NCBI GenBank assembly: GCA_964016885.1 | Contig: OZ024746.1 | Coordinates: 49,042,001 to 49,106,000, forward strand | Length of the DNA stretch: 64,000 nucleotides | Direction of reading: 5' to 3' | Source of the DNA: Eledone cirrhosa | Taxonomy: Eukaryota | Part shown: piece by piece, positions 5,953-61,023 of the stretch | How the letters are laid out: each line of letters starts with the position of its first letter | Position numbering within the stretch: position 1 is the first letter of the stretch | Program-made: the position numbers and the translations under genes | The notes under the pieces: model-generated | Databases searched by the model: none | What the model saw: the letters and a program-made list of their open reading frames with translations, nothing else | What the model was told of the DNA's origin: nothing

Positions 5953-6160
5953 TTTCTGAATTTGTTTACCAAGATTCTTTATCTGAAAACGTGTGTTGAA
6001 ACCGATATTGTTATGCTTTGGGAGGGTCATGTTGCCAATAAGAAACACACGCACCAGTTGCTTTCACTCCAATTTATTATAAATTAAATTTATAAATTTA
6101 AGAATTTATAAATTTCCGGTTGGTTGGTTGGTTCCACAACCGGACGGTTGTTCATATATT

Positions 6161-6203
6161 GTTAAATTTCTTTCGTCACACATTCTGTGACCTCTTCAGT
6201 AAC
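6161..6203 (-). ncRNA. Hammerhead-like motif, minimal type I
   Basis: GUUA-CUGAAGA-G-GUCACA gaaug UGUGAC-GAAA-gaaa-UU-UAAC. Confidence 0.55.
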
Positions 6204-7824
6204 TGGGGATTCTTTTCTTTATTTTTGTGCCTCCCTTTGTTCTGTCCTACGCTATCTTGTTTTTGTGTGTGTTGTGTGCTTAGTTTGCGCATGTGTTACA
6301 TCCGGGTGTCTGTGTGTGTTTATATTTGTTTATTTATTTGTTTATTTAGATGTTGCTGGTTGGTTGTTTGTTCTATGTGTGTGTGTGTTTTAATTTTATC
6401 CTTAATTGTAAGTTGTGATGTTGCTATTCCATTCATGTTTTCTATTTAATTTTGGATGGAGTTCATTTATGTTTATTGCCTCTGTGATTTGTCTAAACAT
6501 TGCGTCTTTTTTGTGTGTAGATTCTATTTTTATTTCTATGTTCTCTAATTTACCCTTAGGTTCTATTTTAGCATGTTGTTGGAGTACAGATGATTCTTTT
6601 CTATCTTGAAGCTCTCGCCGGTGTTCATTTATCCGTTCTCCTATACTACGAGCTGTCTCACCTATGTACACTATATTCTTATCTCAACATTGTCCTTCAG
6701 TAAATATTATGCTATATACTACTATCTAGTTTTACGGTTAATATGGGGGCTTAGTTTACAGATTATACATTTCTATTAACCTTATTCCTACTTCTTTCTG
6801 TTCTATTCCAAAATTTGCTCCTATACAAGGGGCAGGTCCCATTTGTATTATTATTTACCATGATTTCATATTTGGTTCTGGCTTCTCTATATACTCTGAT
6901 GTTATCTCTCTGATTGTAACCAGAGAACTGCATACGGTGGATGAAGTATTGTATGTGTCTCTCTAGTTCTTTGGGGTTGCACATGCGGGACACGTTTCTC
7001 ATCACCCGAAAATTTTGGAATAGAATAGAAAGAACTAGGAATAAGGTTAATAGAATAAACTCATGGTATGATAGCAATAGATACCAGAGTGTAATGTTCA
7101 TCAATACAACCCCTAGAGGTGAATTAGCTTACAAATTTAGAAGAGCCCTATATAAACATAAACTCAATATTAAGATAGTAGAAAGACCAGGTACCTCCAT
7201 AAAAACACTTATTAGCAATACATACCCTTTTCAAAGACCTCCCTATATAGATAAGAAATGTATAATCTGTAAACTAAGCCCCATATTAACTGTAAAACTA
7301 GAAATGTAGTATATAGCATAAGATGTACTGAAGGACAATATCGAGATAAGAATATAGTGTACATAGGTGAGACAGCTCGTAGTATAGTAGAACGGATAAA
7401 TGAACACTGGCGAGAGCTTCAAGATAGAAAAGAATCATCTGCACTCCACCAACATGCTAAAATAGAACATAAGGGTAAATTAGAGAACATAGAAATAAAA
7501 ATAGAATCTACACACAGAAAAGACGCAATGTTTAGACAAATCACAGAGGCAATAAACATAAATGAACTCCAACCAAAATTAAATAGAAAACATGAATGGA
7601 ATAGCAATATCACAACTTACAATTAGGGACAAAATTAAAACACACACACACATAGAACAAACAACCAACCAGTAACATGTAAATGAACAAATAAATAAAG
7701 AAATAAAAACACACACAGACACCCGGATGTAACACATGCGCAAACTAAGCACACAACACACACAAAAACAAGATGGCGTAGGACAGAACAAAGGGAAGCA
7801 CAAAAACAAAGAAAATAATCCCCA

Positions 7825-7867
7825 GTCACTGAAGAGGTCACAGAATGTGTGACGAAAGAACTTTGAC
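7825..7867 (+). ncRNA. Hammerhead-like motif, minimal type I
   Basis: GUCA-CUGAAGA-G-GUCACA gaaug UGUGAC-GAAA-gaac-UU-UGAC; stem I covaries with the 6161 copy. Confidence 0.55.
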
Positions 7868-7991
7868 AATATATGAACAACCAACCGGAAATTTATAAAT
7901 TTTAAAATTTATAAATTTAATTTATAATAAATTGGAGTGAAAGCAACTGGTGCGTGTGTTTCTTATTGGCAACATGACCCTCCCAAAGCAT

Positions 7992-8043
<52 letters not shown>

Positions 8044-8770: not shown

Positions 8771-8957
8771 GAAACTATATATATATATATATTACTCTTT
8801 TACCTGTTCCAGCCAACCGGCTGAGGTCATGCTGGGGACCGCCCTTATATATATATATATATATATATGTAAGAAAAACCACAAACCCTCCATCTGAATT
8901 CTACTTTTGAAAAGCACAAGAACTGCGAAAGCGGTAAAGGACCAATATATATTTTTT

Positions 8958-9193
<236 letters not shown>

Positions 9194-9194
9194 T

Positions 9195-9270
<76 letters not shown>

Positions 9271-10974: not shown

Positions 10975-11861
10975 GAAATTTCACTTAATTGTTGCGAAAC
11001 AAATTAAAAATTAAAAATTTAAATTTGTCCAGGTATCACGGCTATTGCCAATATAGGTTTGTTTTTATTGATTTATTATTTTTAATCGTATTCATTTGTA
11101 TTACACGGCTCAGAAATATCCCTTTCTTTGAGCTATTTAATTGTAAAAAAACTATTTGAGTATATAACTCTATATATAATATTCTCGGCTCCATGCGCTG
11201 AGCTAATTTTTAGTCCCATAAAACCGGCTGCTATTTTTAGCGGCACGAGTATAGGACGTGCTAGACGCTGGGATACATGTGCGTTCAATAACAGATTTAT
11301 CTCAGTCTTCCTAAGTATTTTGAAGTGAAACTTACCAATTTCTGGATACCTGCAGGAATAGGAAATTTCACTTAATTGTTGCGAAACAAATTAAAAATTT
11401 AAAATTTAAATTTGTCCAGGTATCACGGCTATTGCCAATATAGGTTTGTTTTTATTGATTTATTATTTTTAATCGTATTCATTTGTATTACACGGCTCAG
11501 AAATATCCCTCTCTTTGAGCTATTTAATTGTAAAAAACTATTTGAGTATATAACTCTATATATAATATTCTCGGCTCCATGCGCTGAGCTAACTTTTAGT
11601 CCCATAAAACCGGCTGCTATTTTTAGCGGCACGAGTATAGGACGTGCTAGACGCTGGGATACATGTGCGTTCAATAACAGATTTATCTCAGTCTTCCTAA
11701 GTATTTTGAAGTGAAACTTACCAATTTCTGGATACCTGCAGGAATAGGAAATTTCACTTAATTGTTGCGAAACAAATTAAAAATTAAAAATTTAAATTTG
11801 TCCAGGTATCACGGCTATTGCCAATATAGGTTTGTTTTTATTGATTTATTATTTTTAATCG
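10975..11861. repeat. Tandem repeat, ~387-bp unit x2.3
   Basis: Unit starts gaaatttcacttaattgttgcg at 10975, 11362 and 11748; copies near-identical. Confidence 0.95.
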
Positions 11862-16537: not shown

Positions 16538-16839
16538 GTCTATTTGAAGGAAACACTGTTTTAAGAGGAGATAAACAAAAATGTGAACTCTTCTATATAT
16601 ATGTATGTAAACAATGTTATTTTATACCATATTCTTAACTCCATTATAAATGTTATTATACACTTCCGTAGCATGAAGAACCCCACAAGGCTGAAACCGG
16701 TACTATAAATTCCTTTTTTGTGAATAAATGTTTTGCTGTTATTCTATGAGAAAATCCCATTAGCATTTTCTACTGTTTTTTTCTTTTTTACTATTATTTA
16801 TATCAACTGAGTCACTTCTCTTCACTCTAAATATATATA

Positions 16840-17413
16840 TAATTGTTTCTACTTTTGGCACAACGCCAGCAATTACCCAGTGCATTAGTGGTACTTTATT
16901 TTATCGACCCCGTAAGGATGAAAGGCAAAGTTAACCTCGGCGGGATTTGAACTCAGATCATAAAGGGAGGTAAATCTATGCTTCAAAGCATGGCGTCCGA
17001 CCCTCTACCGATACTGACAATCCACCGCCACTAGAATTTCTACTTTTGGCACAAGGCCAGATATACCCCAGTGTACCACTGGTACTTTATTTTATCGACC
17101 TCGTAAGGATGAAAGGCAAATTTAACCTAGGCGGATTTAAACTCAGAACGCAAAGAGCCATAACTATGCTGCAAAACATGGTGTCTGACGCTCTACCGAT
17201 ACTGCCAAACCACTGCCCTTTAATTGTTTCTACTTTTTGGCACAAGGCCAGCAATTACCCAGTGTATTACTGGTACTTTATTTTATCAACCCCGTTCAGG
17301 ATGAAAGGCAAAATTAACCTCGGCGGGATTTGATCTCAGAATGGCAAGGGCCGTAACTCTATGCGTCAAAGCATGGCGTCCGACCCTCTACCGATACTGC
17401 CAATCCACCGCCA
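16840..17413 (-). mobile_element. Three head-to-tail SINE copies
   Basis: Units at ~16840-17030, 17035-17220 and 17221-17413, each with A box TGGCAGTATCGG and B box GAGTTCAAATC or a close variant. Confidence 0.92.
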
Positions 17414-17556
17414 ATATATATATAATGTATGCGTATGTGCGTAGGGTGCTCTTTCAATGGGAAAGCGGAAATTTCTTACACTGATTACCTGATATATGTG
17501 TGCGCGTATCTTTGTATAGCTAGCTAGATGGATATAGTTATAGTTCTATTACTTAG

Positions 17557-18021: not shown

Positions 18022-18767
18022 TCCCCCCCCCCCCCACACCACTCTCAAGAGCGTGAACCTAATAAACCTTTATTTGTCTGCCTCTCTGTTTTGTTCCCGT
18101 CTAAATTTGCACTATATATATACACATATATATATATACATTTCAAACGCGTATATTCGTGCGTATATTCGTATATACTGGTACGTATATTTATGTTTTT
18201 AATTTGTTTTAACCCCCACGGCAACGTATTTTGAAATTTCTAAATTCGTATATGTTTACCAATGATTCATTAGTTGCTAGATCTTGACCATATTGATTTA
18301 TCCGTGCTTAATACCACAATGGTTTGTGTGGAAATTAAACATAATATGGCTGCTTTATTGGCAACGGTTGAGATTTATCGAACACAAATAACGAAGAAGT
18401 GAGAATCAGCACAGTAATGAGCAGTTTTTCAGAGTAGACAACTCTTCTTGTTGCCAACATTGACATCCGCCACTGCAATGTAAGCATACACTATAAGCTG
18501 TGAATAAACAAGTGATCTTATAGCTTTTCCTAACCGTATACGAAAGATACACAGACTTTCACACATACACACAAGCACATTCTCACACATATATAAAACA
18601 CACATGTATATATATATATATATATTACACACATATATACACATATATATATACATACATACCTACATATATACACACATATATACACACATATATACAC
18701 ATATATATATACATACATACCTACATATATACACACATATATACACACATATATACACACATATATG

Positions 18768-19170
18768 GGGGCTGCCAACTCGTTTTCGAGTACGGCCACT
18801 ACTTTATATCCATGTAGGAGAACCCCTACCGATACGCTGAACGAGTGCGACTTTTTAGTCCAGCCAGCGACTTGAAAACTCTGGTACAAACACTACACTA
18901 ATGCTGGGCCCATGGTACCATGTGACGACAAGTGCCGAGAGATCTCCAGATATAAAGCAATGCCTGCGCCGTGAAGCTTTTATAGTGAGCAAAGGCATTG
19001 CACAAAGCCAGTCCCACTCTCTTAACCGAGATGATATTTACCAAAAAGAAGAACAAGTCAACATCATTGGATACCATCAGGGTTGCAGGTGTTATATCAG
19101 AGTTTTCCTTCTAGAATTCTGCCTTGACAAAGGCTAAGGGGTCATCTCTCCCGGTGATTTTGGTGACACA
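18768..19170 (-). mobile_element. Degenerate LINE 3' end (RTE-like, C2H2-type tail)
   Basis: Minus-strand CSVCTRVFKSLAGLKS followed by a CTCG-AAAA-CGAG terminal hairpin. Confidence 0.45.
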
Positions 19171-19214
19171 CATATATACATACATACATACCTACATATA
19201 TATATATATACATT

Positions 19215-19273
<59 letters not shown>

Positions 19274-19423
19274 TATGTATATATATATATATTTGTGAAT
19301 AGTGGTAGCTATGGTGCTTCCGTAGGCGGTATGCCAAAATTAGATCTCGATATTCATCAGAGTAGAGTGTAGGAATTATCAAAAAAACGAGAAATCAGTG
19401 ATACATCTGGACTTAGTTTATTT

Positions 19424-19514
19424 CGTGTTACAAATGTTTCGCCGGCATGTAGCTCGAGCCATGGTCCTTGTATGGATCTGGCTGATTCTACTTCTGCGGG
19501 TTCTTTCAGACACG
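19424..19514 (-). ncRNA. Hammerhead-like motif with extended stem II
   Basis: CGUGU-CUGAAAGA-[CC.GCA..GUAG..AGCCA..UCC/GGA..UGGCU..CUAC.UGC.GG]-GAAA-CAUUUG-UA-ACACG; one extra core A. Confidence 0.65.
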
Positions 19515-20059
19515 CCTGTTATGTCCGGAGCAAATTTTATCACTGAGGTGTTGTTATCAAAACAACCCCTCAAAAAACCTTCTTTCCACTCTTGTCATGC
19601 CATTGGTTGTTTTTACTCCACGTCATCACAAGTTCTTGTCAGTATCTGCTGCCACACGGTTCATCAACCATTTTCCGTCCAACATATTTCAATTGGGTCA
19701 TGCTTGGTTCAGTACCTCATGCGTCTGCTCACACTTCAGAGTAAGCACCCACACATACTAGAATAAACACATAGTAACACACACATATATATACTCAGAC
19801 ATACACCTATCTATGCATTCACACTCGTACGTCTACATGCTCAGACACCCACACCGCTACATACATACATCGCAGTATATATACTCACGCACCCTCTCTC
19901 CCTCTCTCCCATGAGCCCAGTCACACACACTTGTTAATACATGCCGCCACAAGCCTTCTGACTGTTCTGTATCAATTAGGTAAGCATGTCATATTTAAAC
20001 GTACACATATATACATACACATGTACGCACGCACACATACGGCCAAACTTCTATACATT

Positions 20060-20105
<46 letters not shown>

Positions 20106-20312
20106 TTAGTCGTTTGGAAGCCTCGACAATGCAAATGGGTAAATCTCCGGGTAACAAGATCCGGTGGTGGAGAGAGAGATGTAAGTGGGTGTACGTTGAG
20201 ATGCGTGGTGTGTAAAGATGTGTAAATGTGTAGAAGAAAGAAGGCAAGAGTATAAAGGATAAAATTAAAATAACAACACAAGAGAGAGTTACCTTGGGAG
20301 AGATTTAATAGT

Positions 20313-20348
20313 CCCTATATATTTCGAATTCACATCCATCAACTGGGG
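20313..20348 (-). ncRNA. Hammerhead-like fold with CAGUUGA core (copy 1)
   Basis: CCC-CAGUUGA-U-GGAU guga AUUC-GAAA-UAUA-UA-GGG. Confidence 0.55.
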
Positions 20349-20920
20349 TTTTTTTTTCCGGGGTAAAGGTTCTCTGTCGGACAGGTGCGAAACGCGTCCT
20401 CCGCTGTTTGTTGTTTTGAATATCTGAGGTATTCGGTAGAGCGCGTTTTTTCTGGTATTGGACTCTGGAGTGGTAGCACTGGTCGATTGCTTTAGTGATT
20501 TTCAGGAGCAAGTCCCCGGGTGCTATTGGCAGTCGATGTGTCCGCTCTGAGAGTGTCCGCTTATGGACGTGTAATTGGCGGTTGAGATGTCTCAGGATCT
20601 GTTTAATACATGTGCGATGTATGGGGTTAGTGGTGTTTTGGAAACCTGGTGTACGTAGGCTTACTGGTAAGCGGATGTTCCTGATGGTATTGGGGATGAC
20701 ATCGTTTTTTAGGCAGCGTTTCAGGAAAATAATTTGACAGCCAGCGTTGGCCCATTTCTCCGACAGTCTAAACAGTTCCCTTACGCATGCAAACAATTCC
20801 CGGCTCAGGTGTAAGGATAAGAGAGTATTGAAGTTTGCTTGAAGCATTGTGGAATAATAAATAAATATCTTTAAGTCGTTTGGAAGCCTCGACAAGGCAA
20901 ATGGGTAAATCTCCGGGTAA

Positions 20921-23457
20921 CTGTCGGAGAAATGGGCCAACGCTGGCTGTCAAATTATTTTGCTGAAACGCTGCCTAAAAAACGATGTCATCCCCAACAC
21001 CATCAGGAACATCCGCTTACCAGTAAGCCTACGTACACCAGGTTTCCAAAACACCACTAACCGCATACATCGCACGTGTATTAAACAGATCCTGAGACAT
21101 CTCAACCGCCAATTACACGTCCATAAGCGGACACTCTCAGAGCGGACACATCGATTGCCAATGGCACCCGGGGACTTGCTCCTGAAAATCACTAAAGCAA
21201 TCGACCAGTGCTACCACTCCAGAGTCTAATACCAGAAAAAACGGCTCAAGCGAAAATATGAGTGGATCTTGTCGAAACGCCACAACAGGAACATCGACAC
21301 TAACGAACAGACGGACCAGAACCACGTGGGAAACAACAACTTAACAACCGCCACCGCTGCATCCACCAACACCGAGCCATACCTCAACGATGCGACGCAC
21401 CTGGTCACCGACCTAACCGGCACTCTCACGAGCGACGAGCTGAAACTCCTACACCTCGGACCCAAGTTCATCGTCTCACAACGTCTCGACGACAGACTCA
21501 AACTCAACATCGAGGCCAACTTTTGTCGAGCCGCTTACCAACTTAAATGGGTGACCGCCATCAACAGCGCCACAGAAAATAACAGCGCCCACGTAACCCA
21601 CCCCAAGTTCCCCACTTACCACCCGAAAACCCAATGCACGCCCCCACCCACCAACCACGAACTCGACACTAAACTCATCAGGCTAAAACACTCCATCTCG
21701 GATATACTTCACAAACACACACGCACAACACATAACCCCACCAAATCTCAACTCACCACTCTCTCCAATCTAAAATCGAAGAACCTCATCTATCTCCCCT
21801 CCGACAAGGGAAAAGAATTCTGCGTCATCAGCAGAGAGGCCTACAACACCCTGGCCCTCCAACACCTTGACGATGACAACCTCTACTACAAGGTGACGGG
21901 AATCACTCTCGCGCAGATAGAAGAGCACATCAACGCCGCCTGGACCAACATCTGCGACCGGCGGAAGCTCCCGAAGAAGCTGAGATACAACCTCCTCACG
22001 AGGAACAGCAGACTACCCGCCTTCTACCACCTCTTGAAAACACACAAACAGGGACCCGACCTGAAGATCAGGCCCATCGTATGGAGCGTGGAGGGACCAC
22101 TCTACAAAATGTCATGGCTCCTAGCCAGAATACTCAAACCCATCTTAGACACCTTGCCGGGACACGTTAACAGCTCCGAGGAGGTGTTGAAGCGCCTGCA
22201 TCAAATGGATCCCGACACCAGAAGGAATAACAGATATGCCTTCAGCCTTGATGTAGTCGCTCTCTACACCTCGGTCCCGGCACTCCCGGCCGTCAATATA
22301 CTGATGGAACGCGTCCAATCCACCGATTTTCACTGCTTCGGGCTCACAACCACTGACATCCACCAACTCCTATCCATCGTCGTCGACAACACCTACTTCG
22401 GATTCCTTGACCAAACATACCAACAAACCTCGGGATTGCCCATGGGATCAAGCCTATCAGGTGTGCTAGCGATCTCTTACATGGACAACCTCGAACGCAA
22501 GGCACTCAACGCCTGCCACCCCAATGTCGTAGCCTTTTTCTCAAGGTACGTGGACGATATCCTCATCCTCACATCTTCCCAAGACACGGCGAACAGAATC
22601 TATGAGACGTTCAACAACACGGACGAGAACATTGACTTCAGTGTTGAACACCCCAACGAAGACGGGTCACTTGCCTTCCTCGACTTCCGAATCAACATCA
22701 CGAAACAGGGAAGGACCCACTGCAACTTCTACTGAAAGGCAGCCTGCAGGGACCTGTTTGTTCACTACAAGTCCGCCCTCCCTAACAGTGCCAAAAGAGG
22801 ATACATCACGAACGAGATCGCGCGAATCAAAAACAGATGCAGCGATCCCGCGAGTGGTGTCACTCATACCAAGCGATTCCTCGAGGTGCTGGAGACGAAC
22901 GGGTACCCTACCTCGATCACAGACAGAATAGGAGACACCAGACACATAAGACAGAGAGGCCCCCAAGGCAAGTGCTTCCATAAAATTCCACATCTGGGCG
23001 AGAATACCACCAATGCTATCCGCAAGGCTATACGGAGGGAGGGCCTCGACATCACCTGGCCCACTCGGGCCCCTCCCTGCAAAGATGCCTCTCCAAGAAA
23101 CCCGGGAAATCTACTGACGCATGCTCCCTCAGAGACTGCCCGATACGCCATCCGAACTGTTGCCTACGCACATACGTCGTGTATAAGATAGAATGTGACA
23201 GGTGCAACCAATACTACATAGGTAGCACAATCCGACCTTTGCACATCCGGATCAAGGAACACACTAAAACCAGGGCCTCGTCTTTCCGGAAACACATAGA
23301 CAAATGCGGAAACAAAGACGGAAGGCCCATTGTCACAATTCTAGCGACTGAAAGAAACGTCGGCACGTGACGTATCAAGGAAGCACTTTTTATCAAACGC
23401 CTGCAACCGCAAATAAACAACCGATTAGAGAGAAGCGAAATGAGATGGCTGGTTTAA
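20921..23457 (+). pseudogene. PLE reverse transcriptase-GIY-YIG endonuclease ORF, disrupted
   Basis: PSDKG, FYHLLKTHK, IRPIV, FSLDVVALYTSVP, QTSGLPMGSSLS, RYVDD, FLDF, NGYP, VVYKIECDRC..YIGST.R.L..RIKEH; stops at 21227 (CAA in the inverted copy), 22733 and 23368; 1-nt frameshift near 23055. Confidence 0.95.
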
Positions 23458-23834
23458 GTTAACAAACGATGTAGCAACACACAACACACGTGCACACAAA
23501 CGAGACAACTACACACACACACACAGTAGCATGCCACCATACGAACATACTACACTGCCAATACAGAGGAACAAGGCAACTACACACGCACACACACACT
23601 CAAGCGAGACAACAACACACGCACACACACACACAGTAACATTTAACAAACAGGCAGAGAATGGACTGACAGCTAGCGCCACCTCACTCCCTCATTCGGC
23701 CGCTGACCTCTGCCCGACCGACGCCATTTCCGGCGCACGCGCGCTCTGCCGAATACCTCAGATATTCAAAACAACAAACAGCGGAGGACGCGTTTCGCAC
23801 CTGTCCGACAGACAACCTTTACCTCGGAAAAAAA

Positions 23835-23870
23835 CCCCAATTGATGGATATGAATCAGAAATATATTGGG
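23835..23870 (+). ncRNA. Hammerhead-like fold with variant core (copy 2, mutated)
   Basis: CCC-CAAUUGA-U-GGAU auga AUCA-GAAA-UAUA-UU-GGG in the 3' pLTR. Confidence 0.45.
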
Positions 23871-24127
23871 ACTATTAAATCTCTCCCAAGGTAACTCTCT
23901 CTTGTGTTGTTATTTTAATTTTATCCTTTATACTCTTGCCTTCTTTCTTCTACACATTTACACATCTTTACACACCACGCATCTCAACGTACACCCACTT
24001 ACATCTCTCTCTCCACCACCGGATCTTGTTACCCGGAGATTTACCCATTTGCATTGTCGAGGCTTCCAAACGACTTAAAGATATTTATTTATTATTCCAC
24101 AATGCTTCAAGCAAACTTCAATACTCT

Positions 24128-24177
<50 letters not shown>

Positions 24178-24280
24178 CTCATACACACGCATATATACAT
24201 ACACACATACATTCACATACGTACATATATACGCACATGTGCATACACGGATATACATACACACCTAGGATTTTTTCATT

Positions 24281-24335
24281 CATTCTGATGAATGAAAGTA
24301 AATATCATTTGCTTTCAAGAAAACACTGGTAAATT
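24281..24335 (+). ncRNA. Type I hammerhead ribozyme motif (Naiad-associated family)
   Basis: AUU-CUGAUGA-aUGAAAGUAAAU auc AUUUGCUUUCAa-GAAA-acacugg-UA-AAU. Confidence 0.75.
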
Positions 24336-24526
24336 AAACAACTATCCTATGTTGTTCATTACATAACTATATGTATATATATATATATATATACATATAT
24401 ATACACACACACACATACATACACACACATATATACACAAACGTAAACTCACACATGTCCACACACACATACGAACACATACGTCCATAGACATTGCCTA
24501 CACACGTACTTACACACACACACACA

Positions 24527-24605
<79 letters not shown>

Positions 24606-24952
24606 AGTATATACATATAGATATATACACACATATGCATACGCATATCCACACATATACATAAAAATACCCACGTGCAGGCCGAACCACATACATCTAC
24701 ACATGCGTGCGCATGCATGTTGCCGCATGCATACACATGCACGCATGTACATCTGCCTACCCACACAGAAGTGCCACAACATATACATGTACATATATAA
24801 ACACACCTGTAAGTGAACAGTCGAAAATACCTTATGCAACAAAAAACAGTATAATAACATAAAACTGTATAATAACATAAGAAAAATATACAATGAAATA
24901 TTAGATAGAATGTGGTATATATATACACACACACACATAGACACATATATAT

Positions 24953-24997
<45 letters not shown>

Positions 24998-25002
<5 letters not shown>

Positions 25003-25579
25003 GGTAAATTTCTTTAAGTCGCTTGGAAGCCTCGACAATGCATATGGGTAAATCTCCGGGTAACAGGATCCGGTGGTAGAGAGAGAGATGTAAGTGGGTG
25101 TACGTTGAGATGCGTGGCGTGTATAAGACGTGTAGAGGAATGAAGGATAAAGCGTAATGGAAAAAAATAAAAATAACAACACGAGAAAGAGTTACCTTGG
25201 GAGAGATTTAATTGTCCCTATATATTTCGGATTCACATCCATCAACTGGGGGTATTTCTCCGGGGTGGGGGAAAGGTTGTCTGTCGGAAAGGTGCGAAAT
25301 GTATCCTCCGCTGTTCGTTGTTTTGAATATCTGAGGTATTCAGCAGAGCGCGCGTACGCGTGAAATGGGGACGGTCAGGCAGAGGTCAGCGGCCGAAGTA
25401 GTTCTTTCAATTGTGGGAGTGGGGTGGCGCTAGTTGTCAGTCCATTCTCTGCCTGTTTGTTGAATGTTATTGTGTGTGTGTGTGTGTGTGTGTTGTTGTC
25501 TCGCTTGAGTGTGTGTGTGCGTGTGTTGTTGCCTTGTTTCTCTGTATTGGCCTTGTAGTATGTTCGTATGGTGGAATGC

Positions 25580-25651
<72 letters not shown>

Positions 25652-25742
25652 GTCGCTGTCTCGCTTGTGCGTGTGTTGCTGCATCGTTTGTTAACTGAAA
25701 CCAACCACCTCATTTCGCTTCTCTCGGATCGGTTGTTTAATT
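24998..25742 (-). mobile_element. 5'-truncated diverged copy of the 20.1-kb PLE (last ORF codons plus pLTR)
   Basis: Reverse complement of 23413-24090 with scattered substitutions (NNRSERSEMRWLV). Confidence 0.92.
25216..25252 (-). ncRNA. Hammerhead-like fold with CAGUUGA core (copy 3)
   Basis: CCC-CAGUUGA-U-GGAU guga AUCC-GAAA-UAUA-UA-GGG; perfect stem II with GNRA loop. Confidence 0.6.
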
Positions 25743-25744
25743 GT

Positions 25745-28230
25745 GGCGTACTACACACAGGCATTATGTGATGCAGGCTTGTATCCGTGTATACAACAGG
25801 TAACAGTAACAAAACAGTGATATAAAAATATTAACAATCACTTTTCCAAAGAGGAGTAGGTGTAGAGTATATAGTCATGACTGATGGTGTACACATTCAA
25901 TGTGACGCCCGCCACGGTCGCCATGGGGCATGGCACCTTCTCTGGAGTGTGCTGTTCTAGACGTTTTGTGCACAGGTCCGGGCGGCAGTCGGCCCCGTAT
26001 CAGCCGGTCCCGACCCATGCATTGCATCTTCCAATGTTGCGTGCCCGGTCACGTGCGCACCCGGTCTACATATGATTGCCCCGCGGGTCGGACGTCGTCA
26101 TCATGGTATGTCGTCAGGTCCCCTAATCCCGCTAGACCAATCGGGTCTGTACTTTCTCATTCTCGTGCCCCCTGCTGCGTCACCCGCCGGATTCCATGCT
26201 GCAAAAGTGCATCTTCTCTGGTGTCTACATGTCATGATAATTTCAGACTTCAGGTTGACGGCGCCATCCTTCAGTCTGATTATCTCCATGGCCTCCTGTA
26301 GGCACAGTCGGCACTTTCTAATTCCGGCCGAATAGGCACGCACGTGGCGAACGATACTCCATTCCAGGGCGTATGGGGTGCCGTGGTCTTTCATGTCCCA
26401 CACGAGGTCCGCTAACCTAGTGGAGTGCCTTTTGCTACGGTCCCTGAAGGAATTCGTGTGATAATACATCCACGATTTAAAGGTCGTGGATGTTGCGCCT
26501 ATGTAGGTTCGATGCGCATTCTGGGTCGTCACCACACACTTGTATACCAGGTCCTTCATTAAGCATTTTCCCTGTAGGGGGCACTGGGTGCCCGCTCTAC
26601 AGTTGCAGGTTCTGCTGTCAATTCTTGTGCGTCCGATGTCCGGGCCCTGATCTGTAATGGCCCTCTCAAGGTTCTCAGTGAGCTGCACCGCCGCCGCACT
26701 TGTGTCCCAACCCCCATGCCCCTATTTCCCTCCCGATGTTGGACCATATCGCCCTCGACGGGTGCTCTGGTCGCCTCGGGGGCCGGGTTGTCATTTGAAG
26801 GCAGGTCCCTAGGTGGTTCTCCGCGCTCCGAAACATGGTCACTCTGTCGGCGCGGTTGCCGGCCAGTGTGCGCCTTCTTCACCGCGTTAGTTCTAGCCAT
26901 GTAGTCGGCCATATTCGGCGCCGTGGAGAAGGAAAATTTCACCGTGTGGCGGTTGAAGATTTTGTGGTATTTGTTTGTCGTCGGAAAGCACTCATCCAGC
27001 GCTCGGAAGAAAAGTCCTGGCACGTTGGTGCGTACATGTTTAGAATAAGGCGCATTGAACCAGGTAACGGCCTTAGATAAGTTCCTTTGTGTGCGTGGAT
27101 TCATGTTGTTGTGTCTAGGGTCGTTGCCGGCCCAGTGCTCTGCCCCACCTCAATTTCGTCTCGTGTGTTGTCCCTGTCTATTAGTCTGCTACGTTCGTCG
27201 TGGTTATGTTCTACCGTTGTAAATTTACGTCGTTCTATGTAGTCATCTATACGTCTATTCCCCTTAGGTCTATGTGATGTTATTGTCAGTGCTGTGGCAC
27301 TAGAACTAGGCTGTTCGTGCTCTGTGGCGTGTGCCCCGTTTTTATTTGTCGAAGATCTGTCCAAGGTTCCAGTTTCCACCGAGTATGCAGTGTGCGTGCA
27401 CACCGGGTGGTCTGGCTCCCATGGGTGCCTTAGTTTTATCTCTGGTCGGTCGTGTGCCATTAAAGTTAGTATTGTTGTTATTTGTGTTCCTGGCTACTAC
27501 TACTGGGTCAATTTTTCTACCTAGGGAGGCGCCCCCACTATTGTTAGGCTCTACTCTAACATATCGTTAGGCTCTACTCTATCTGCGGTATATACTATGG
27601 TGTCTTTGTAACCGGCCCTGCGCAGTGCCTCATTATAATATTCGGCGTGCTGTTTAAACACTTCTGCGTTAAACGACAAGGTGCATACGCGTTTTGACAC
27701 CCCTTTAACTATGGCTTCTATGACTGACTTAGGGTGATTCGATTGCCTGTTCACATACTGCAGGTTTTCGTTGGGCTTATGGTACGGTCTGTGGATTTCC
27801 GTATTCATTTCGAAGGTAACGTCCAGGAAATTGAGAACCAGTCAATTACCTCCTTAGTGGAGGTCAATAGGCTAAGCTTAGTTTTGTTTCTAAGTACCGG
27901 TATTATCCTATCTATAATATTCTTACTGGTCTTTCCTAGGTCGGATTTGGAGGGTGCTATTAACCTAACCGGTAGTTTAGTTTTAAAGTCTAATTTGTGG
28001 TCCTTAATAGATATACGTGGTCTTCTAGGTACATATACCTCGGTTCTATCCTCTAGTCCTAGCCCCGTCAGTATACTTTTTGCCGTGGCGTTAATACCAT
28101 CTAAATTTGTCTGTCCAGTGGTCCTATAGTTTTTCCTAATCTCCTTTCCGAGACATTCGTGTATATGTGTGGATATGCGTATGCATGTTAAGTTGTCCTT
28201 TCTTGTTTTCGTTTTTGTTTTGTGTGTATA
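25745..28230 (-). mobile_element. Naiad-type PLE with RT palm deleted
   Basis: ISIKDHK.DF....PVRLIAPSKSDLGKTSK; NFLDVTF; PYHKPN....YVN.QSNHP; TWFNAPYS; CNCR....CPLQGKC...LVYKC...YIGAT.TTFK; CRLC..E; TCRH. Confidence 0.88.
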
Positions 28231-28253
28231 CATCTATATATATATACTTATAT

Positions 28254-28308
<55 letters not shown>

Positions 28309-28361
28309 CGTAAAATAAGAAAATCTTTTTTTAAAAAAATTTTTTACTTACTTAAATTTTC

Positions 28362-28443
28362 ACTCCAACTAATTAGTTTCTGCAATGGGATAAAGACAGT
28401 TACGTAATCTAACTGTCGAGAATTCATTGCGTCATCAGGGAGT
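28362..28443 (-). ncRNA. Type I hammerhead ribozyme motif, canonical core
   Basis: ACUCC-CUGAUGA-cGCAAUG..GACAGUUA gauuacg UAACUGUC..CAUUGCa-GAAA-CUAAUUAG-UU-GGAGU; stem III is the perfect palindrome ACUAAUUAGU. Confidence 0.88.
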
Positions 28444-28953
28444 CTATTCTCAGCTAAGTCTCCAGGCAATGCGCGGACACTGGCGGCTCATATAAAAATA
28501 ATAATAATTCGGTAGATAGAACAGCTGGCGAGGACTGAATTCTATGTACTGAAATCCTCACTGCTTCTAGTCAAATGGCCGATTCTAAAGAATCAATCAC
28601 GTGACACAGAGGCTAGTCAGAAGGAATGGGATGGTAAGATGACTGACGCCTACTATCACCCCCCCAAAAAATTTTTTTAGAAGTGGTTTTGGCAGGTTTG
28701 CTCGACAAATCAGTGATTTGGAGATAAATATAGATAATTTAATATATCAACTAACATAAGCGCACAGATGTGTGTGTGTGTGTAAGTACGTGTGTAGGCA
28801 ATGTTTATGTACGTATGTGTTCGTAAGTGTGTGTGAACATGTGTGAGTTTACGTTTGTGTGTGTATGTGTGTGTGTGTGTATATATAAATGTATATATAT
28901 ATATATATATATATACATATAGTTATCTAATGAACAACATAGGATAGTTGTTT

Positions 28954-29008
28954 AATTTACCGGTGTTTTCTTGAAAGCAAACGATATTTACTTTCATTCA
29001 TCAGAATG
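28954..29008 (-). ncRNA. Type I hammerhead motif (inverted duplicate of 24281)
   Basis: AUU-CUGAUGA-aUGAAAGUAAAU auc GUUUGCUUUCAa-GAAA-acaccgg-UA-AAU. Confidence 0.75.
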
Positions 29009-29108
29009 AAAAAATCCTAGGTGTGTATGTATATCCGTGTATGCACATGTGCGTATATATGTATGTATGTGAATGTATGTGTGTATGTATATATGCGTGT
29101 GTATGAGC

Positions 29109-29187
<79 letters not shown>

Positions 29188-29737
29188 AATGTATAGAAGT
29201 GTGGCCGTATGTGTGCGTGCGTGGTAGTGTATGTATATATGTGTACGTTTAAATATGACATGCTTACCTAATTGATACAGAACAGTCAGAAGGCTCGTGG
29301 CGGCATGTATCAACAAGTGTGTGTGACTGGGCCCATGGGAGGCAGGGAGAGAGGGTGCGTGAGTATATATACTGCGATGTATGTATGTATGTGGCGGTGT
29401 GGGTGTCTGAGCATGTAGACGTACGAGTGTGAATGCATAGATAGGTGTATGTCTGAGTATATATATGTGTGTGTTACTATGTGTTTATTCTAGTATGTGT
29501 GGGTGCTTACTCTGAAGTGTGAGCAGACGCATGAGGTACTGAACCAAGCATGACCCAATTGAAATATGTTGGACGGAAAATGGTTGATGAACCCTGTGGC
29601 AGCAGATACTGACCAGAACTTGTGATGACGTGGAGTAAAAACAACCAATGGCATGACAAGAGTGGAAAGAAGGTTTTTTTGAGGGGTTGTTTTGATAACA
29701 ACACCTCAGTGATAAAATTTGCTCCGGACATAACAGA

Positions 29738-29812
29738 CGTGTCTGAAAGAACCCGCAGAAGTAGAATCAGCCAGATTCATACAAGGACCATGACTCGAGC
29801 TACATGCCGGCG

Positions 29813-29815
<3 letters not shown>
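29738..29815 (+). ncRNA. Truncated duplicate of the 19424 hammerhead-like motif
   Basis: Same stem I, core and stem II but ends at GAAA, directly followed by (TA)n. Confidence 0.55.
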
Positions 29816-29889
<74 letters not shown>

Positions 29890-31065
29890 ATTTATATATA
29901 TGTAGGTATGTATGTATATATGTGTGTCACCAAAATCACCGGGAGAGATGACCCCTTAGCCTTTGTCAAGGCAGAATTCTAGGAGAAGGAAAACTCTGAT
30001 ATAACACCTGCAACCCTGATGGTATCCAATGATGCTGACTTGTTCTTCTTTTTGATAAATATCATCTTGGTTAAGAGAGTGGGACTGGCTTTGTGCAATG
30101 CCTTTGCTCACTATAAAAGCTTCACGGCACAGGCATTGCTTTATATCTGGAGATCTCTCTCAACTTGTCGTCACATGGTACCATGGGTCCAGCATTATGT
30201 GTCAATAATATATATATTATTGTAGAACAACTGTCGATCCTGGGGACGAGCGTTCCAATTGTTGGTACAATGAAACAGACTGCACGTGAAATTAAGACAT
30301 GCTTTTCTGAAATCATGTGCAATCTTAACATAGTTCACAAAGAGGTTCCACGTGGTATAGTAAAGCTGGCCCGTTCAATTACTATTACATTTCATTTTTG
30401 CCATGCAACTAGAACAATATCAGTTAGTATATGTTTTGGGTAGTAGAGACAATGTAGTGAAAACAATGGACGTGTTTCAGTCTTTTTAGATTTCTTCAAT
30501 GAAGCATATTCACTTCATTTGGCTAGAAAACGTTGAGGTTTTTTTAAAAAATTAGATGGATTAATATAACTCAAATAGGCGCTGCTTTAGAAGGAGATTA
30601 TATTTTATCTGTGAAGAACAAATTTCGTTCTTCCTCTTCATTTCAGTTTTACTGTACTTTAAGTAAGACATATTAAGATAGTATCTTATGTGACGATCTT
30701 GATACTGAATAAGTTAAATGATAAATATCTTCATTGGCAATGACTGTTTTGTGTATATTTCACTAATACGAAAAACGTATCACGATTTATATGAATCAAA
30801 GAAAAATAAGATAAAACTAAAGAAAAATACTGTGAGAAATGAACAATTGTCGAATATTTATTTTACATTATTCAATTTCATTTTATTTTTCCTTATCGAA
30901 ACTATGTTAACGGGGAATTGTCTGGATATATGTAAACGTACACAATTATATATATATACATATAGGAAAAGAATCAGGGCCCCAACGGCTGAGCTCAGGC
31001 CGGCTCGACAGCCGTCGGTGTCTTGACTCTTTTCGTATTACCCACTCTACTGCACTAGTATCTAG

Positions 31066-43482: not shown

Positions 43483-43876
43483 TGGATTGGCAGTATTGGT
43501 AGAGGGTCGGACACCATGCTTTCCAGCATAGTTACGTCCCTTTATGGTCTGAGTTCAAATCCCGCTGAGGTTAACTTTGCCTTTCATCCTTACGGGGTCG
43601 ATAAAATAAAGCACCAGTAATGCACTGGGTAATTGATGGCCTTGTGGCTAAAGTAGAAACAATTATTATTATTTTTATTATTGGTGAATTGGCAGTATCG
43701 GTAGAGGGTCGGACGCCATGCTTTCCAGCATAGTTACGTCCCTTTACGGTCTGAGTTCAAATCCCACCAAGGTTAACTTTTCCTTTCATTCTTACGGAGT
43801 CGATAAAGTAAAGTACCAGTAATACACTGGGAAAATTGCTGGCCTTGTGCCAAAAGTAGAAACAATTATTATTATT
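43483..43876 (+). mobile_element. Two tandem SINE copies
   Basis: Units at ~43483-43672 and 43683-43876 with A/B boxes and (ATT)n tails. Confidence 0.92.
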
Positions 43877-48135: not shown

Positions 48136-48600
48136 ACAATATATTAACAAATGGAAACTATATTTATAAATACATATTTATTTCATTATACATATTTCAA
48201 GGGCCACCAAGGCAAACTATGGTGCGCTTTCATTAGATAAAATATAATATAGGTTAGTTTCATAAATAAATATTGACATACACCGAAAAAATGCAACCAT
48301 TCTGGTTGGAATCTCCTGGATTGGTTGCATTTTTTCAGGGTATGTCAATATTTATTTATAAAACTCACCTATATTATATTTTATCTGATGAAAGCGCACC
48401 ATAGTTTGCCTTGGTGGCCCTTGAAATATGTATAATGAAATAAATATGGTTTTATAAATATAGTTTCCATGGTTTTATAAATATAGTTTCCATTTGTTAA
48501 TATATTGTATATTTACTCCAATAATTTGTTGAGTGCTTTATATCAGTTATAAAAATATTTTGCTTGTTGTATCCCAACAAATTAAATATAACCTCTACAC
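48135..48600. mobile_element. Fold-back non-coding PLE derivative (~165-bp arms, ~20-bp spacer)
   Basis: 48135-48300 is the reverse complement of 48320-48510; flanked by microsatellite. Confidence 0.88.
48377..48442 (+). ncRNA. Type I hammerhead ribozyme motif
   Basis: UAUUUUAU-CUGAUGA-AAGcGCACCA..UGGUGgCcCUU-GAAA-UAUGUA-UA-AUGAAAUA; the mirror copy on the left arm has CUAAUGA. Confidence 0.8.
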
Positions 48601-51340: not shown

Positions 51341-51356
51341 GTTTATGTATATATAT

Positions 51357-52679
<1,323 letters not shown>

Positions 52680-54081: not shown

Positions 54082-54216
54082 CATCATTTTACGATCATTT
54101 CTAGGATATATATGTGTGTGTTGGTATGTATATCATATAGATCTATGTAAAAATTTTCCAAACTATCAGAGGGATATACATACCTACACATATATATGCT
54201 GTCTTCAGAAATAATG
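54082..54216 (-). ncRNA. Type I hammerhead motif with ~110-nt stem II
   Basis: CAUUAUUU-CUGAAGA-[AUAUAUAUGUGU.GGUAUGUAUAUC...GAUAUACAUACC..ACACAUAUAUAU]-GAAA-UGAUCG-UA-AAAUGAUG. Confidence 0.8.
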
Positions 54217-55937
54217 ATATTTGTTTATTGAAAAAAAAACAACAAAGATTTAATATAATAGGTCTGTTTGGGAACAGGTTTTGAATTGACCAATAGAAAA
54301 GTAGTAAGTGGTCAAGTGATGGAATAGTAGTAGTAGAAATTTAATTTAGGGGGTAGAGGAATGCAGACTTCAGTTTTGAATGGAAGATATTACTTTGGGG
54401 ATGAAAATAGGTCAAGCCAGTGAAAGGTACACGAAAATTTGATGTTATTAAAGAATAATGCTAATGTTAAAATCTAAGGAGAATAAAATTTTACGATAAA
54501 TGTGTTAGTGAAAAATATCAATCTTATTTAAAACATAAGGAATTTAGATCTATAAAAAGAAATTAAATTAAATTTAATTGATAGGTATATTTATAGGGAT
54601 AAATTTATATTAATTCATATAGATATGATAAATAAGAGTTAGATGTTATTAAAGAATGTTGTTAAAAACGAAGGAAAAAGACTTTTTTTTTGGGGGGGGG
54701 GGATAAATGTATTAGTGAGAATAACAAACTTATATAGATTACAAGGAATTTAGATTCATAACAGGAAATTAAAATAGTTTATAGGTATACTTATTGGTAT
54801 AAATTTTAGGAAAAGATAGCTATAAAAGGGAAATAAAATTATGCAGTTCTTAGTAGTAGAATATTAATTATAGGTTAACTAATTTTAAAAAATTAATTAT
54901 AATAATTTGTAAAATATAAGTGTATATTAATTAGGTTTATAATATTTGAAAGTTTTTCTAATTCTATGATTGCACGATATAATTAATTCTTGTCGCTTAT
55001 TTAATAGGATATCCTTAGATTTAATTATTTCAAAAGTTCCTGGGAACATAATCTACATTCATATCTATTATTTTGATAACGGGTGGCCCTGTTGAGCACA
55101 CTCCAGGTCAGGTTATAATGGATATTTGAAATAATGAAATCTAATTAAATAAGCGACAAGAATTAATTATATCGTGCAATCATAGAATTAGAAAAACTTT
55201 CAATATTATAAACCTAATTAATATACACTTATATTTTACAAATTATTATAATTAATTTTTTAAAATTAGTTAACCTATAATTAATATTCTACTACTAAGA
55301 ACTGCATGATTTTATTTCCCTTTTTTAGCTATCTTTTCCTAAAATTTATACCTAAAAGTATACATATAAAGTATTTTAATTTCCTGTTATGAATCTAAAT
55401 TCCTTGTAATCTATATAAGTTTGTTATTTCTCACTAATACATTTATCCCGCCAAAAAAAATTTGTTTTCCTTCGTTCTTAACAACATTCTTTAATAACAT
55501 CTAACTCTTATTTATCATATCTATATGAATTAATATAAATTTATCCCTATAAATATACCTATCAATTAAATTAATTTAATTTTTTTTATAGATCTAAATT
55601 CCTTATGTTTTAAATAAGATTGATATTTATCGTAAAATTTTATTCTCCTTAGATTTTAACATTAGCATTATTCTTTAATAACATCAAATTTTCGTGTACC
55701 TTTCACGGCTTGACCTATTTTCATCCCCAAAGTAATCTTTTCATTCAAAAATACTCTTTCCATTCAAATTGAAGTCTGCATTCCTCTGCCCTCTAAATTA
55801 AAATTTCTACTACTACTATTCTATCAACTTGACCACTTACTACTTTTCTATTGGTCAATTCAAAACCTGTTCCAAAACCTATTATATTAAATCTTTGTTG
55901 GGTTTTTTTTTCAATAAACAAATATCATTATTTCTGA

Positions 55938-59019: not shown

Positions 59020-61023
59020 TTAAGGCAAGCGGAAGTGTCCTCTCAAGTTTAGCAAAATCCTATACTTTTCTGTGGTACACAAAGAACAATTCTTTGTGCC
59101 CCTTTGGTACTCCCTCGAATGGTCTAATATAGACCAATCAATAGAGTACGGGATGTTACTATCCTTGAGTTCCCACACCTTACTTGCGAGGGCCGTTGAT
59201 GTTCGTTTATCGGAGTGCTTAAAAGAAGCGACATGTGAGTAAAATCTGGTTTTAAACCTGTCCTGGATCATACCGACATATCGCTCACTCCTGGCTGGCT
59301 GGCTGGTTGTTGATTACTGGTGTTATCATAGCCTCATAAACGACAGATTTAGTGTTACATCTACCCTGCAATGGGCATTCGCCCGGCTTCCTGCAACTGC
59401 ATCTGGATTTATTCTCGTCCGGTTTGAGCTGGGTGATTTTGGACTTCATAGATGGGCAACAAGAGTAGCTGATCTTGACTACGTTCCTATTAAATATCTT
59501 ATAATATCTATGATTAGGAGGAAAATGTTTGTCTAATAGTTCAAGGAATTTCCTTCCTACATTAGTTTTGACAGTTAGAAGAAGGGGGGTGGGTGAACCA
59601 AATAATCTTCCTTTTCCTGTTATTGTGGTTAGTTTTAGGGGGGGGGGGAGTAGGTAAATAAGAATTTTTTTCTGTAAAACCGCTGTTCTTAAGGGCTTTA
59701 TTATAATAAGGTAGAAATCCTACGGCTAATGTTAGGAATAAGATTATTAAAAACTTTAGGGGGATGGCAAGACTCTTTGTGTATATACCTAAGATTTTCG
59801 TTAGGTTTATGGTAGGGTTTAAAAGAGGCAGTAAGTAAATCAGATTAATATCAAGAAAGTTAGCAATAGTAAGGTTCGTATCTATAGTAATTTTAAGGTT
59901 AAGATTAGCAAAAGTATTGATTAAATCTTTATGGAATTTATCAAGGTCATGGCCGTTGGTGGTATGAGAAACTGCTAATCCGTCATCACGGTATAAACCG
60001 ATATTATGGGACGGAAATTTCTCTTTGAGGGTGTGGAGAAGGAACAATCCAACTAAGTCACACACATCCGCACTGTCATATGAACCCATTGCGACATCAA
60101 AAGAGTTTTCAGGGTTTGACTTTTTAACCTAAATATTATCATTAGTAAAAAGTAAAGTTTTTCTAGCATGGAGGATAATATCTTCTTCTAATTTAGAAAT
60201 ATTAATGGAGGTCTTGCAAAATCTAAGGCCTTAGTTAATAAGGAAACAGTAATAGAAGGGTAAAAATCGACAATATCAAACTGGGTAAATCTACACTTAT
60301 TTTTACCTTGTATGTTATTGAACCAAGAAATAACAGAGGAAGTATTTAGCCACTGTGATAGGTCAGTGTTAGTTCTGATTTGGAGAATTATTTTTCTTAA
60401 GATATTCTTACTTACAAGGCCAACCTCGGATTTAGCCGGGTTAATCAATCTACAACTAGGTCGTTAGTAAAGTCCTATTTATGGTCTTTAAGGGTAATAT
60501 ATTCTTTACGCTTAGCTAAGCTTTCAATCCGGTTATCTATTTGTAAAGAACTAGCTAGTTCTTTAGCTTCTTTATTGATAGTATTGTAGGTATTATTATT
60601 AGTTAATTGATATTTATTGGTAATACTATTAGTTAAAAGTTGGTTATACAAAGTACTATTAACTTCAAAGAGGTTTTTAGTTTTATCAGAAAGAACGAAA
60701 GAGTTTGTAGAATTTCTAAAATTAGAAATATCGTTAGAAAGTTTGGTTTGAAAGTTATTATTGTACTTACGAAACTTGATATCATTAATTAGATTAACGA
60801 GGTCTAATTCGAAGCTGGCCATGTCTTTAATTCTAGGTGGATATTTACGAGATTTGATGTCAAAACAATCTTAGTATCAGCCCTGAATAGTCCGTCGTAA
60901 ACCATTGCCTTCCATCTCATTCTTTTAACGACTTGTTCGATTTTGTCTATGAGGATTTTGGTGTAAGTTGTGTTGGAAGGAGTGGGTATATTTTTGATTG
61001 AATAATCCAAATCATAAAGGTCC
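59020..61023 (-). pseudogene. Naiad-type PLE RT-GIY-YIG ORF, near full length but disrupted
   Basis: DYSIKNIP; KRMRWKA; SDKT.NLF; ITLKDHK; INPAKSEVG; QWLNT..VI.WF; FDIVDFYPSI; FDVAMGSYDSADVCDLVG; GLYRDDGL; CSCR...CPLQGRC; YVG...FKTRF.SH; CSLC.TEK; several stops and frameshifts. Confidence 0.92.

Follow-up and report, generated by a model that had tools for sequence, protein, structure and literature searches.

Introduction

Penelope-like elements (PLEs) bearing an endonuclease (EN+) are known to insert in a form that has an inverted 5' copy and is tailed on just one side (PMC3846280; Craig et al., 2021, PMC8557442; as given in the available text of both), and the way in which PLEs form inverted structures is described as an open question in the available part of PMC8557442. 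In the closest described case, Pen2a_Av, the accessible account (PMC3846280) presents a pseudo-long terminal repeat (pLTR) running into the start of the open reading frame (ORF), an adjacent inverted 5'-truncated copy, a one-sided tail, nesting in another Penelope element and (TA)n targets that hide the target-site duplication. The present analysis concerns a 64,000-nt stretch of the Eledone cirrhosa genome (contig OZ024746.1, positions 49,042,001 to 49,106,000; hereafter the window, in which positions are counted), where a 4-kb PLE of family A, much like Pen2a_Av, lies in a (TA)n tract of a second and apparently Hydra-like PLE, family B, which itself consists of two head-to-head halves.

Both A and the head-to-head B belong to kinds of PLE arrangement that are already known, and the nesting in (TA)n, the head-to-head, one-tail layout and the empty site of A are ordinary. 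The one unusual feature of the locus, absent from an earlier description made from the letters of the window (the sequence-only reading), is an inverted copy of the DNA flanking B; it matters more than the empty site, because host flank in an arm cannot derive from the ordinary RNA of the element. The inverted half of B and the flank copy may have been produced when DNA synthesis folded back at the break into which B was inserted, with A probably inserted later, the likeliest of the readings weighed and one to which we give an even chance. A comparable process is found in L1-induced inverted duplications (bioRxiv 10.1101/2024.12.14.628481, available text), which share with B an inverted flank copy and priming on ~2 bp of TA/AT homology. 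In the L1 case, which concerns somatic cells, the flank duplicated is that of the reciprocal end itself, whereas in B the copied flank is the one at the 3' end of the element and comes with element sequence, in an assembled animal genome. B also differs from the PLEs of PMC3846280 and PMC8557442 in that its inverted half includes host flank, a feature not described in the available text of either paper. The literature covered yielded no description of a PLE duplicating its flank, subscription papers and preprint supplements lying outside that coverage.

Arms of the inverted structure

Alignment of the left side, after removal of 20103-24129, against the reverse complement of 28769-30202 gives three blocks with 10/303, 16/597 and 7/264 substitutions (microsatellites excluded), amounting to 33/1164 sites (2.8%) and to a match far above chance; comparison of the window with itself, a check suggested in the sequence-only reading, returns the inverted match in three blocks. 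On the minus strand at 29100-29200, the right arm reads ctatacatttaaa-(TA)n-cacacgctcatac with nothing in between (empty tract at 29114-29195), whereas in the left arm the same flanks are split by 20103-24129, with (TA)n remaining on either side (20062-20102 and 24130-24169). The sequence-only reading had seen this arrangement correctly: the empty site fixes the boundaries of the insertion (here refined to 20103-24129), the inverted 5' piece and the forward ORF share one site, and the targeting of (TA)n extends genome-wide, as 45 of 53 family A 3' ends abut (TA)n (ends running into a tandem ORF start being left out of the A counts). Remnants of the 4-kb element at the right-arm site, which that reading had named as a sign against itself, were not found.

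The inverted duplication of which it had spoken needs correction. In dispersed loci (10-kb stretches around matches), the segments 19293-20062, (TA)n, 24170-24915 and 25747-27834 keep this succession; they make up the 3' untranslated region (UTR) and body of a second PLE family, B, on the minus strand. The arms are accordingly mainly the B 3' UTR in head-to-head form, i.e., two halves of a dispersed element, and not duplicated unique host DNA. They are neither single-copy nor bounded by breakpoints unrelated to element ends, as a segmental inverted duplication of unique host DNA would be, and a first look at a 351-bp and a 266-bp arm piece gave 1816 and 2385 candidates, respectively, in the 3.0-Gb, microsatellite-rich genome. 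Among 25 places (23 loci) elsewhere that span the B-internal (TA)n, 15 have nothing inserted and the remaining 10 are filled by other insertions, three of the latter probably representing one duplicated event. The empty (TA)n is internal to the older element B, and since most of these places are also empty, its existence needs no duplication. A similar arrangement is seen at L046 (G000:C18, near 1.96 Mb), a 7.3-kb head-to-head B pair with one internal (TA)n filled and one empty, like the window. These panels consist of the best matches to window queries and lean to young, similar copies; L051 (overlapping L046) and L082-L084 (flanking or overlapping pieces) were dropped before counting, while L057 and L066 (duplicates of L056) were dropped from the stem and arm comparisons and the rare-variant analysis.

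On the minus strand, the B copy of the window comprises a body at 25747-28159, which is 5'-truncated at 28159 and carries an internal deletion of ~450 bp at 27832, a 3' UTR portion at 24170-25001 with a 33-bp deletion near 24633, and the 3' end with UTR at 19293-20061, including a hammerhead-like motif (~19514-19424) and a long ('tail') class of end at 19293. The plus-strand half begins at 28160, head-to-head with the 5' truncation, and not at 28769 as the sequence-only reading had placed it; its inner part (28160-28303) corresponds to the B UTR from 24659 down to ~24560, and its outer part (28769-29818) ends at the equivalent of 19434. Between these two parts lies a separate repeat, X (28304-28768), within the (TA)n of the right arm. 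A stretch of 139 bp of the left arm (19295-19433) is absent from the right arm, and the left arm lacks 33 bp and 20 bp that are wholly or partly retained in the right. A further insertion in another B (TA)n, at 25002-25746 on the minus strand, comes from the 3' part of a diverged subfamily of A; it replaces ~400-750 bp of B UTR and is 9.9% away from the forward A copy (best relatives 96%).

Assignment and 3' ends of family B

In the window ORF at 26101-26721, the nuclease region of B shows a CxCX5C linker to the GIY-YIG domain and lacks CCHH, while its E and N residues are surrounded by CxxC and CxH. DKT occurs in other copies (CxxC, CxH and DKT being present in L058, L079, L069, L158, L159 and L161) and RMRWR (RWR) in four copies, the region of this motif being missing from the window copy, of which the reverse transcriptase (RT) remains as a piece. 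The CxCX5C linker, lack of CCHH, CxxC/CxH, DKT and (TA)n insertion recall the Hydra clade of C-terminal EN+ PLEs as set out in the available text of PMC8557442, from which B departs by RWR in place of RWK; the likeness is one of motifs alone, and B is accordingly termed Hydra-like. A hammerhead-like core with a 5-bp stem I is conserved among copies, with one extra core base and no Rfam match.

Genome-wide, a TA run of at least four units comes after 75 of 79 B 3' ends, and tails-outward pairs make up 21 of 57 B loci, all except one of these (20/21) having one end at 19293-19294 and the other at 19375-19385. The two classes of 3' end in head-to-head pairs thus lie at ~24085/24129 in A and 19375/19293 in B. 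Published in vitro work on PLEs likewise gives, in its available text, two 3' end classes per family, AT-rich targets and extension of both strands, with the difference that the B tail measures ~82 nt against 30-40 nt and that the end classes here are deduced from genomic ends only. The end of B in the right arm (equivalent of 19434) is scarce, with two exact matches against 101 for the usual short end (the patterns being different), which rules it out as a third class of end in common use; at L239, an independent pair, a 19434-type end stands opposite one at 19293. Both 19434 and L239:1516 are rare B ends placed directly after a hammerhead-like GAAA, ~8 nt before the putative cleavage site.

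Within the B body, the RT piece at 27833-28159 is 1.3% from copy L158 and the remainder ~6.8%, the switch falling at the 450-bp deletion, where a template jump between two B RNAs may have occurred.

Inverted copy of the flanking DNA

Beyond the end of B, the right arm runs on through a microsatellite and ~290 bp of repeat C, giving ~400 bp of copied flank (29815-30212, minus strand). Repeat C is a ~620-bp element with microsatellite ends, putatively SINE-like (short interspersed nuclear element), and its original lies at 18765-19170 on the plus strand with a 20-bp deletion near 18890 and a 175-bp deletion at 19163/19164. It is followed by a composite microsatellite of (CATA)n, (CA)n and (TA)n (19166-19292), the presumed target of B. 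The joint of the 175-bp deletion occurs only in both arms of the window, as a pattern search gave three matches, the third being a full-length C. Because this locus-private deletion is common to both arms, the flank copy comes from this locus itself, and the same shared deletion rules out two independent insertions of C. A donor locus carrying both B and C was sought and none was present among 40 scored places, the third pattern match being an ordinary full C. The inverted copy (C') lacks the 5' part of C and ends at a TA remnant.

At the outer junction with non-repeated DNA (30203-30222), a short TA run lies in a 20-bp palindrome with 2-3 nt of AT microhomology, and no close match to the DNA on its right was found elsewhere in the genome. 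This junction is spanned by a contig of the X1 run (30169-30939, no differences, 40 letters on the arm side), where X1 may be the sample of the assembly itself; for the inner junction (28159/28160), no spanning contig was present among the matches listed. Contigs of runs X4, X5 and X10 do not reach the unique side of the outer junction, and those of X4 give no match over 25660-28220, neither of which speaks for or against the structure; no RNA run was among those listed for the sequence.

On the body side, five other loci offered six candidates for a flank inversion, and on inspection none runs on from an element tail; they look like small repeats on both sides, L070 being unexplained. At that locus, 105 bp beyond the B tail (L070:8665-8769 and 2254-2359) are repeated in inverse orientation with 98% identity, 2.4 kb past the 5' end of the element, and the repeat carries no B tail.

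Proposed fold-back synthesis at the insertion break

Priming of the ordinary kind, from each of the two cut ends, leaves flanks that differ from one another, and hence something must have copied DNA at this locus. In the fold-back reading, the GIY-YIG nuclease of B would have opened the (TA)n next to repeat C, and the top-strand end would have primed B complementary DNA (cDNA) from 19293 to 28159. With 1-2 nt of microhomology, the end of this cDNA would have folded back onto position 24659 of the B UTR and, with its own strand as template, been extended through the B 3' end, the microsatellite and ~290 bp of C (~1.7 kb in total), and the copied end would then have joined the right-hand TA remnant at 30212. 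A variant leading to an identical product would have the flank copied at the break and the short half of B primed from that copy. Deletions would later have arisen in both arms, and A, whose 3' ends visibly point outward, would have entered the B-internal (TA)n at some subsequent time in the usual PLE way. Repeat X and the diverged A fragment each occupy another B microsatellite.

Support for fold-back comes from the start of the right arm exactly at the 5' truncation of B (28159/28160), where B UTR continues before the equivalent of 28160 in other genomic copies, and from the description of L1 inverted flank duplications on 2-bp TA/AT homology (bioRxiv 10.1101/2024.12.14.628481, in its accessible text). 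That the duplication took place at insertion is supported by three rates and variants: the private changes of the single-copy B body (24/2270, 1.06%) are close to the post-duplication changes per arm (10 in 2x568, 0.9%), the B RT piece differs from copy L158 at only 4/316 sites, and 8 of 13 rare variants common to the arms also occur in copy L054, so that much of the shared stem would reflect the source lineage. Divergence between the arms is alike in their flank portion (3.0-3.3%) and their B portion (2.6-2.7%).

Several observations weigh against this reading. It rests on a single instance, none of the 37 other A and B pairs carrying a tail plus flank copy. A joint fit places 40% (16-66%) of the B branch before the duplication, and strictly private shared variants number 3-4/568 against 4/2895 in ten other B pairs (p=0.03-0.09); this excess and the 40% stem also fit a later duplication event. 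A synonymous test of source lineage versus residence gave 19/51 against 28% expected, with no clear lean to either. Furthermore, the right-arm end at 19434 requires a 139-bp deletion under pure fold-back, and ordinary two-ended priming is favoured by the L239 pair, in which a 19434 end is combined with one at 19293. The arms also differ in a 3-bp indel of C, whose pattern is found among other C copies as well, and the microhomologies at the junctions are just 1-3 nt.

Competing orders of events

The best-surviving alternative, unlikely in our estimate, is that a small inverted duplication of the 3' end of C formed first round (TA)n and that B was inserted centrally by two-ended priming, with 19293 as its long end and 19434 as a rare short end, A following later. 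The long/short rule seen in 20/21 B pairs and the 19293/19434 pair at L239 agree with such an order, as do the frequency of short palindromes near A and B loci and the fact that the C arms are no less diverged than the B arms. Nevertheless, two rare events would be required, the 19434 end being rare in itself (2 vs 101 exact matches, different patterns), and the C arms share non-majority sites at only 2/269 positions, because of which the palindrome must have formed soon after the insertion of C and just before that of B.

Somewhat less probable is an insertion of B followed at a later date by a break at the TA run on its 5' side, from which fold-back or one-sided invasion copied 1.7 kb of the leftward side; this comes closest to the host duplication of the sequence-only reading. 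The 40% share of the stem, a FastTree stem of 0.010 (support 0.96) against arm branches of 0.014-0.016, and the distance of the nearest other B3 copies (4.9%, with the arms 2.6% apart) point towards it. An age of 3.3% would, however, lead to ~10 differences in the RT piece from L158, where 4/316 are found (p=0.02), the private rate of the B body agrees with the post-duplication rate, and there is no gradient of divergence along the arm.

An origin of the right arm as an artefact of assembly, or as a retrocopy of a read-through RNA by 3' transduction, is highly improbable. No listed contig spans the whole region, and X1 may be the source sample, both of which leave some room for such an origin; yet the arms differ by 2.8% and several indels, each with its own insertion, the X1 contig bridges the outer junction, and no other junction of C, microsatellite and B was found among the 40 scored places or by pattern.

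As to the age of A, the sequence-only reading had placed its insertion after the duplication. This stands as the simplest order and is consistent with divergence, which cannot itself supply a date: the halves of A differ at 15/655 sites (2.3%) and the arms at 33/1164 (Fisher p=0.54), and dating A against the arms in this manner was discarded as having no power. Because the two divergences are indistinguishable, A being later than the arms is parsimonious and unproven by divergence. The weakest of the alternatives, that A was already in place at the formation of the arms and then deleted from the right one between (TA)n runs, making the empty site secondary, draws on the overlapping divergences and on the deletions that are frequent at the locus (one ending in (TA)n), but is scarcely credible given that no A remnant lies in the right arm, that the site is empty in 15/25 places elsewhere, that the private rate of A (0.88%, 18/2055) is not above that of B, and that a clean 4-kb loss would be an extra event.

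Family A

The 4-kb insertion has the make-up of a canonical EN+ PLE: its 5' half is inverted, and just one of its ends bears a tail. The inverted half (20103-20920, minus strand) consists of a pLTR piece, the ORF start (ATG near 20847) and a short-class 3' end, with an internal jump from the equivalent of 21242 to 23740. The forward copy (20921-24129, plus strand) is 5'-truncated and encodes RT, a Cys-rich linker and, at the C-terminus, GIY-YIG, followed by a long-class 3' end and tail. The halves are joined head-to-head at 20920/20921 with 2 nt of microhomology, and both outer ends are 3' ends on (TA)n, the right one (24129) with the tail and the left one (20103) without it. Across the genome, 16 of 39 A loci are tails-outward pairs, 15 of the 16 having one long and one short end; this layout fits the two internal start sites of reverse transcription described in the available text of PMC11167929. 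As judged from the available text of PMC3846280, A shows no difference of substance from Pen2a_Av, the internal deletion of its inverted half being a type of change also found there. The joint of that deletion is in none of the other 39 best matches; a non-autonomous family as its source was discarded, as no other of 40 scored matches spans the joint.

The domains of A are recovered by Pfam as RVT_1 (E=7.6e-11) and GIY-YIG (E=1.8e-4, 22.1 bits against a cut-off of 22.6), the RT motifs read GPKF, DKG and YVDD, and its best protein relatives with RT and GIY-YIG are 38-41% identical. Between the two cores lies C-x2-C, followed by two histidines, in the window copy and in six variants listed of 37 matches. 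Three stops and one frameshift are private to the window copy, and none of the 39 and 42 copies used for comparison has its TGA codons, which rules out selenocysteine recoding. An assignment to Naiad was also excluded, the nuclease being C-terminal rather than N-terminal and the TGA codons not conserved. The strict Neptune/Nematis linker (CX2-5CxxC) was found in 0/37 copies and 0/27 relatives, and A is hence classed only as an EN+ PLE with a Cys-rich linker; a related C-X4-C-X5-8-C is present, while more distant matches have Cys-free linkers. A variant hammerhead core near 23841 is conserved among copies, its fold being unconvincing and without an Rfam match.

Other repeats of the window

Repeat X (minus strand), part of a ~560-bp tandem unit, is retrozyme-like as judged from a hammerhead-like motif and fold, and 1638 candidates, in tandem and inverted arrays, occur in the genome. 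Its ~560-bp tandem unit, hammerhead-like core and location in (TA)n recall the animal non-LTR retrozymes described in the available text of bioRxiv 10.64898/2026.07.22.740005, whereas the core of X is predicted from sequence and lacks an Rfam hammerhead match. The Rfam scan gave only microsatellite-driven microRNA-type and other weak matches, all below gathering scores, with no hammerhead.

Apart from the main locus, a tails-outward pair of a GIY-YIG element lies at 6005-7999 (arms 6005-6774/7254-7999, 92.7%, each end on (TA)n), with relatives in 22 of the loci compared, and another Hydra-like family has left decayed ORFs, recognisable by DKT and CxCX5C in their translations, at 59285-60870 on the minus strand. 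Further palindromes of 88-94% are seen at 51356-52439, 54205-55937, 48151-48470 and 8945-9207, the first three with relatives in other loci. Outside the window, L063:3005-7093 (G000:C10, near 48.75 Mb) is a 4.1-kb palindrome of 99.8% identity directly adjoining a B UTR piece, and is either very recent or an assembly artefact. Tandem repeats occur at 10975-11861 (386 bp, 2.3 copies, 99%) and 16838-17418 (191 bp, three copies; relatives at 43483-43869 and in many loci).

Significance

For annotation, the locus calls for caution, as apparent inverted duplications in such genomes can be the halves of an element. The flank copy, being one case with three competing event orders, is a lead and not a result. 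The broader proposal that PLE integration itself makes inverted duplications of host flank, by fold-back of cDNA through the 3' end of the element, is tentative and in our view rather less probable than not. If true, some inverted 5' halves of PLEs would be DNA copies and not the outcome of a second priming on RNA, and PLE activity at (TA)n would seed host palindromes in the germ line.

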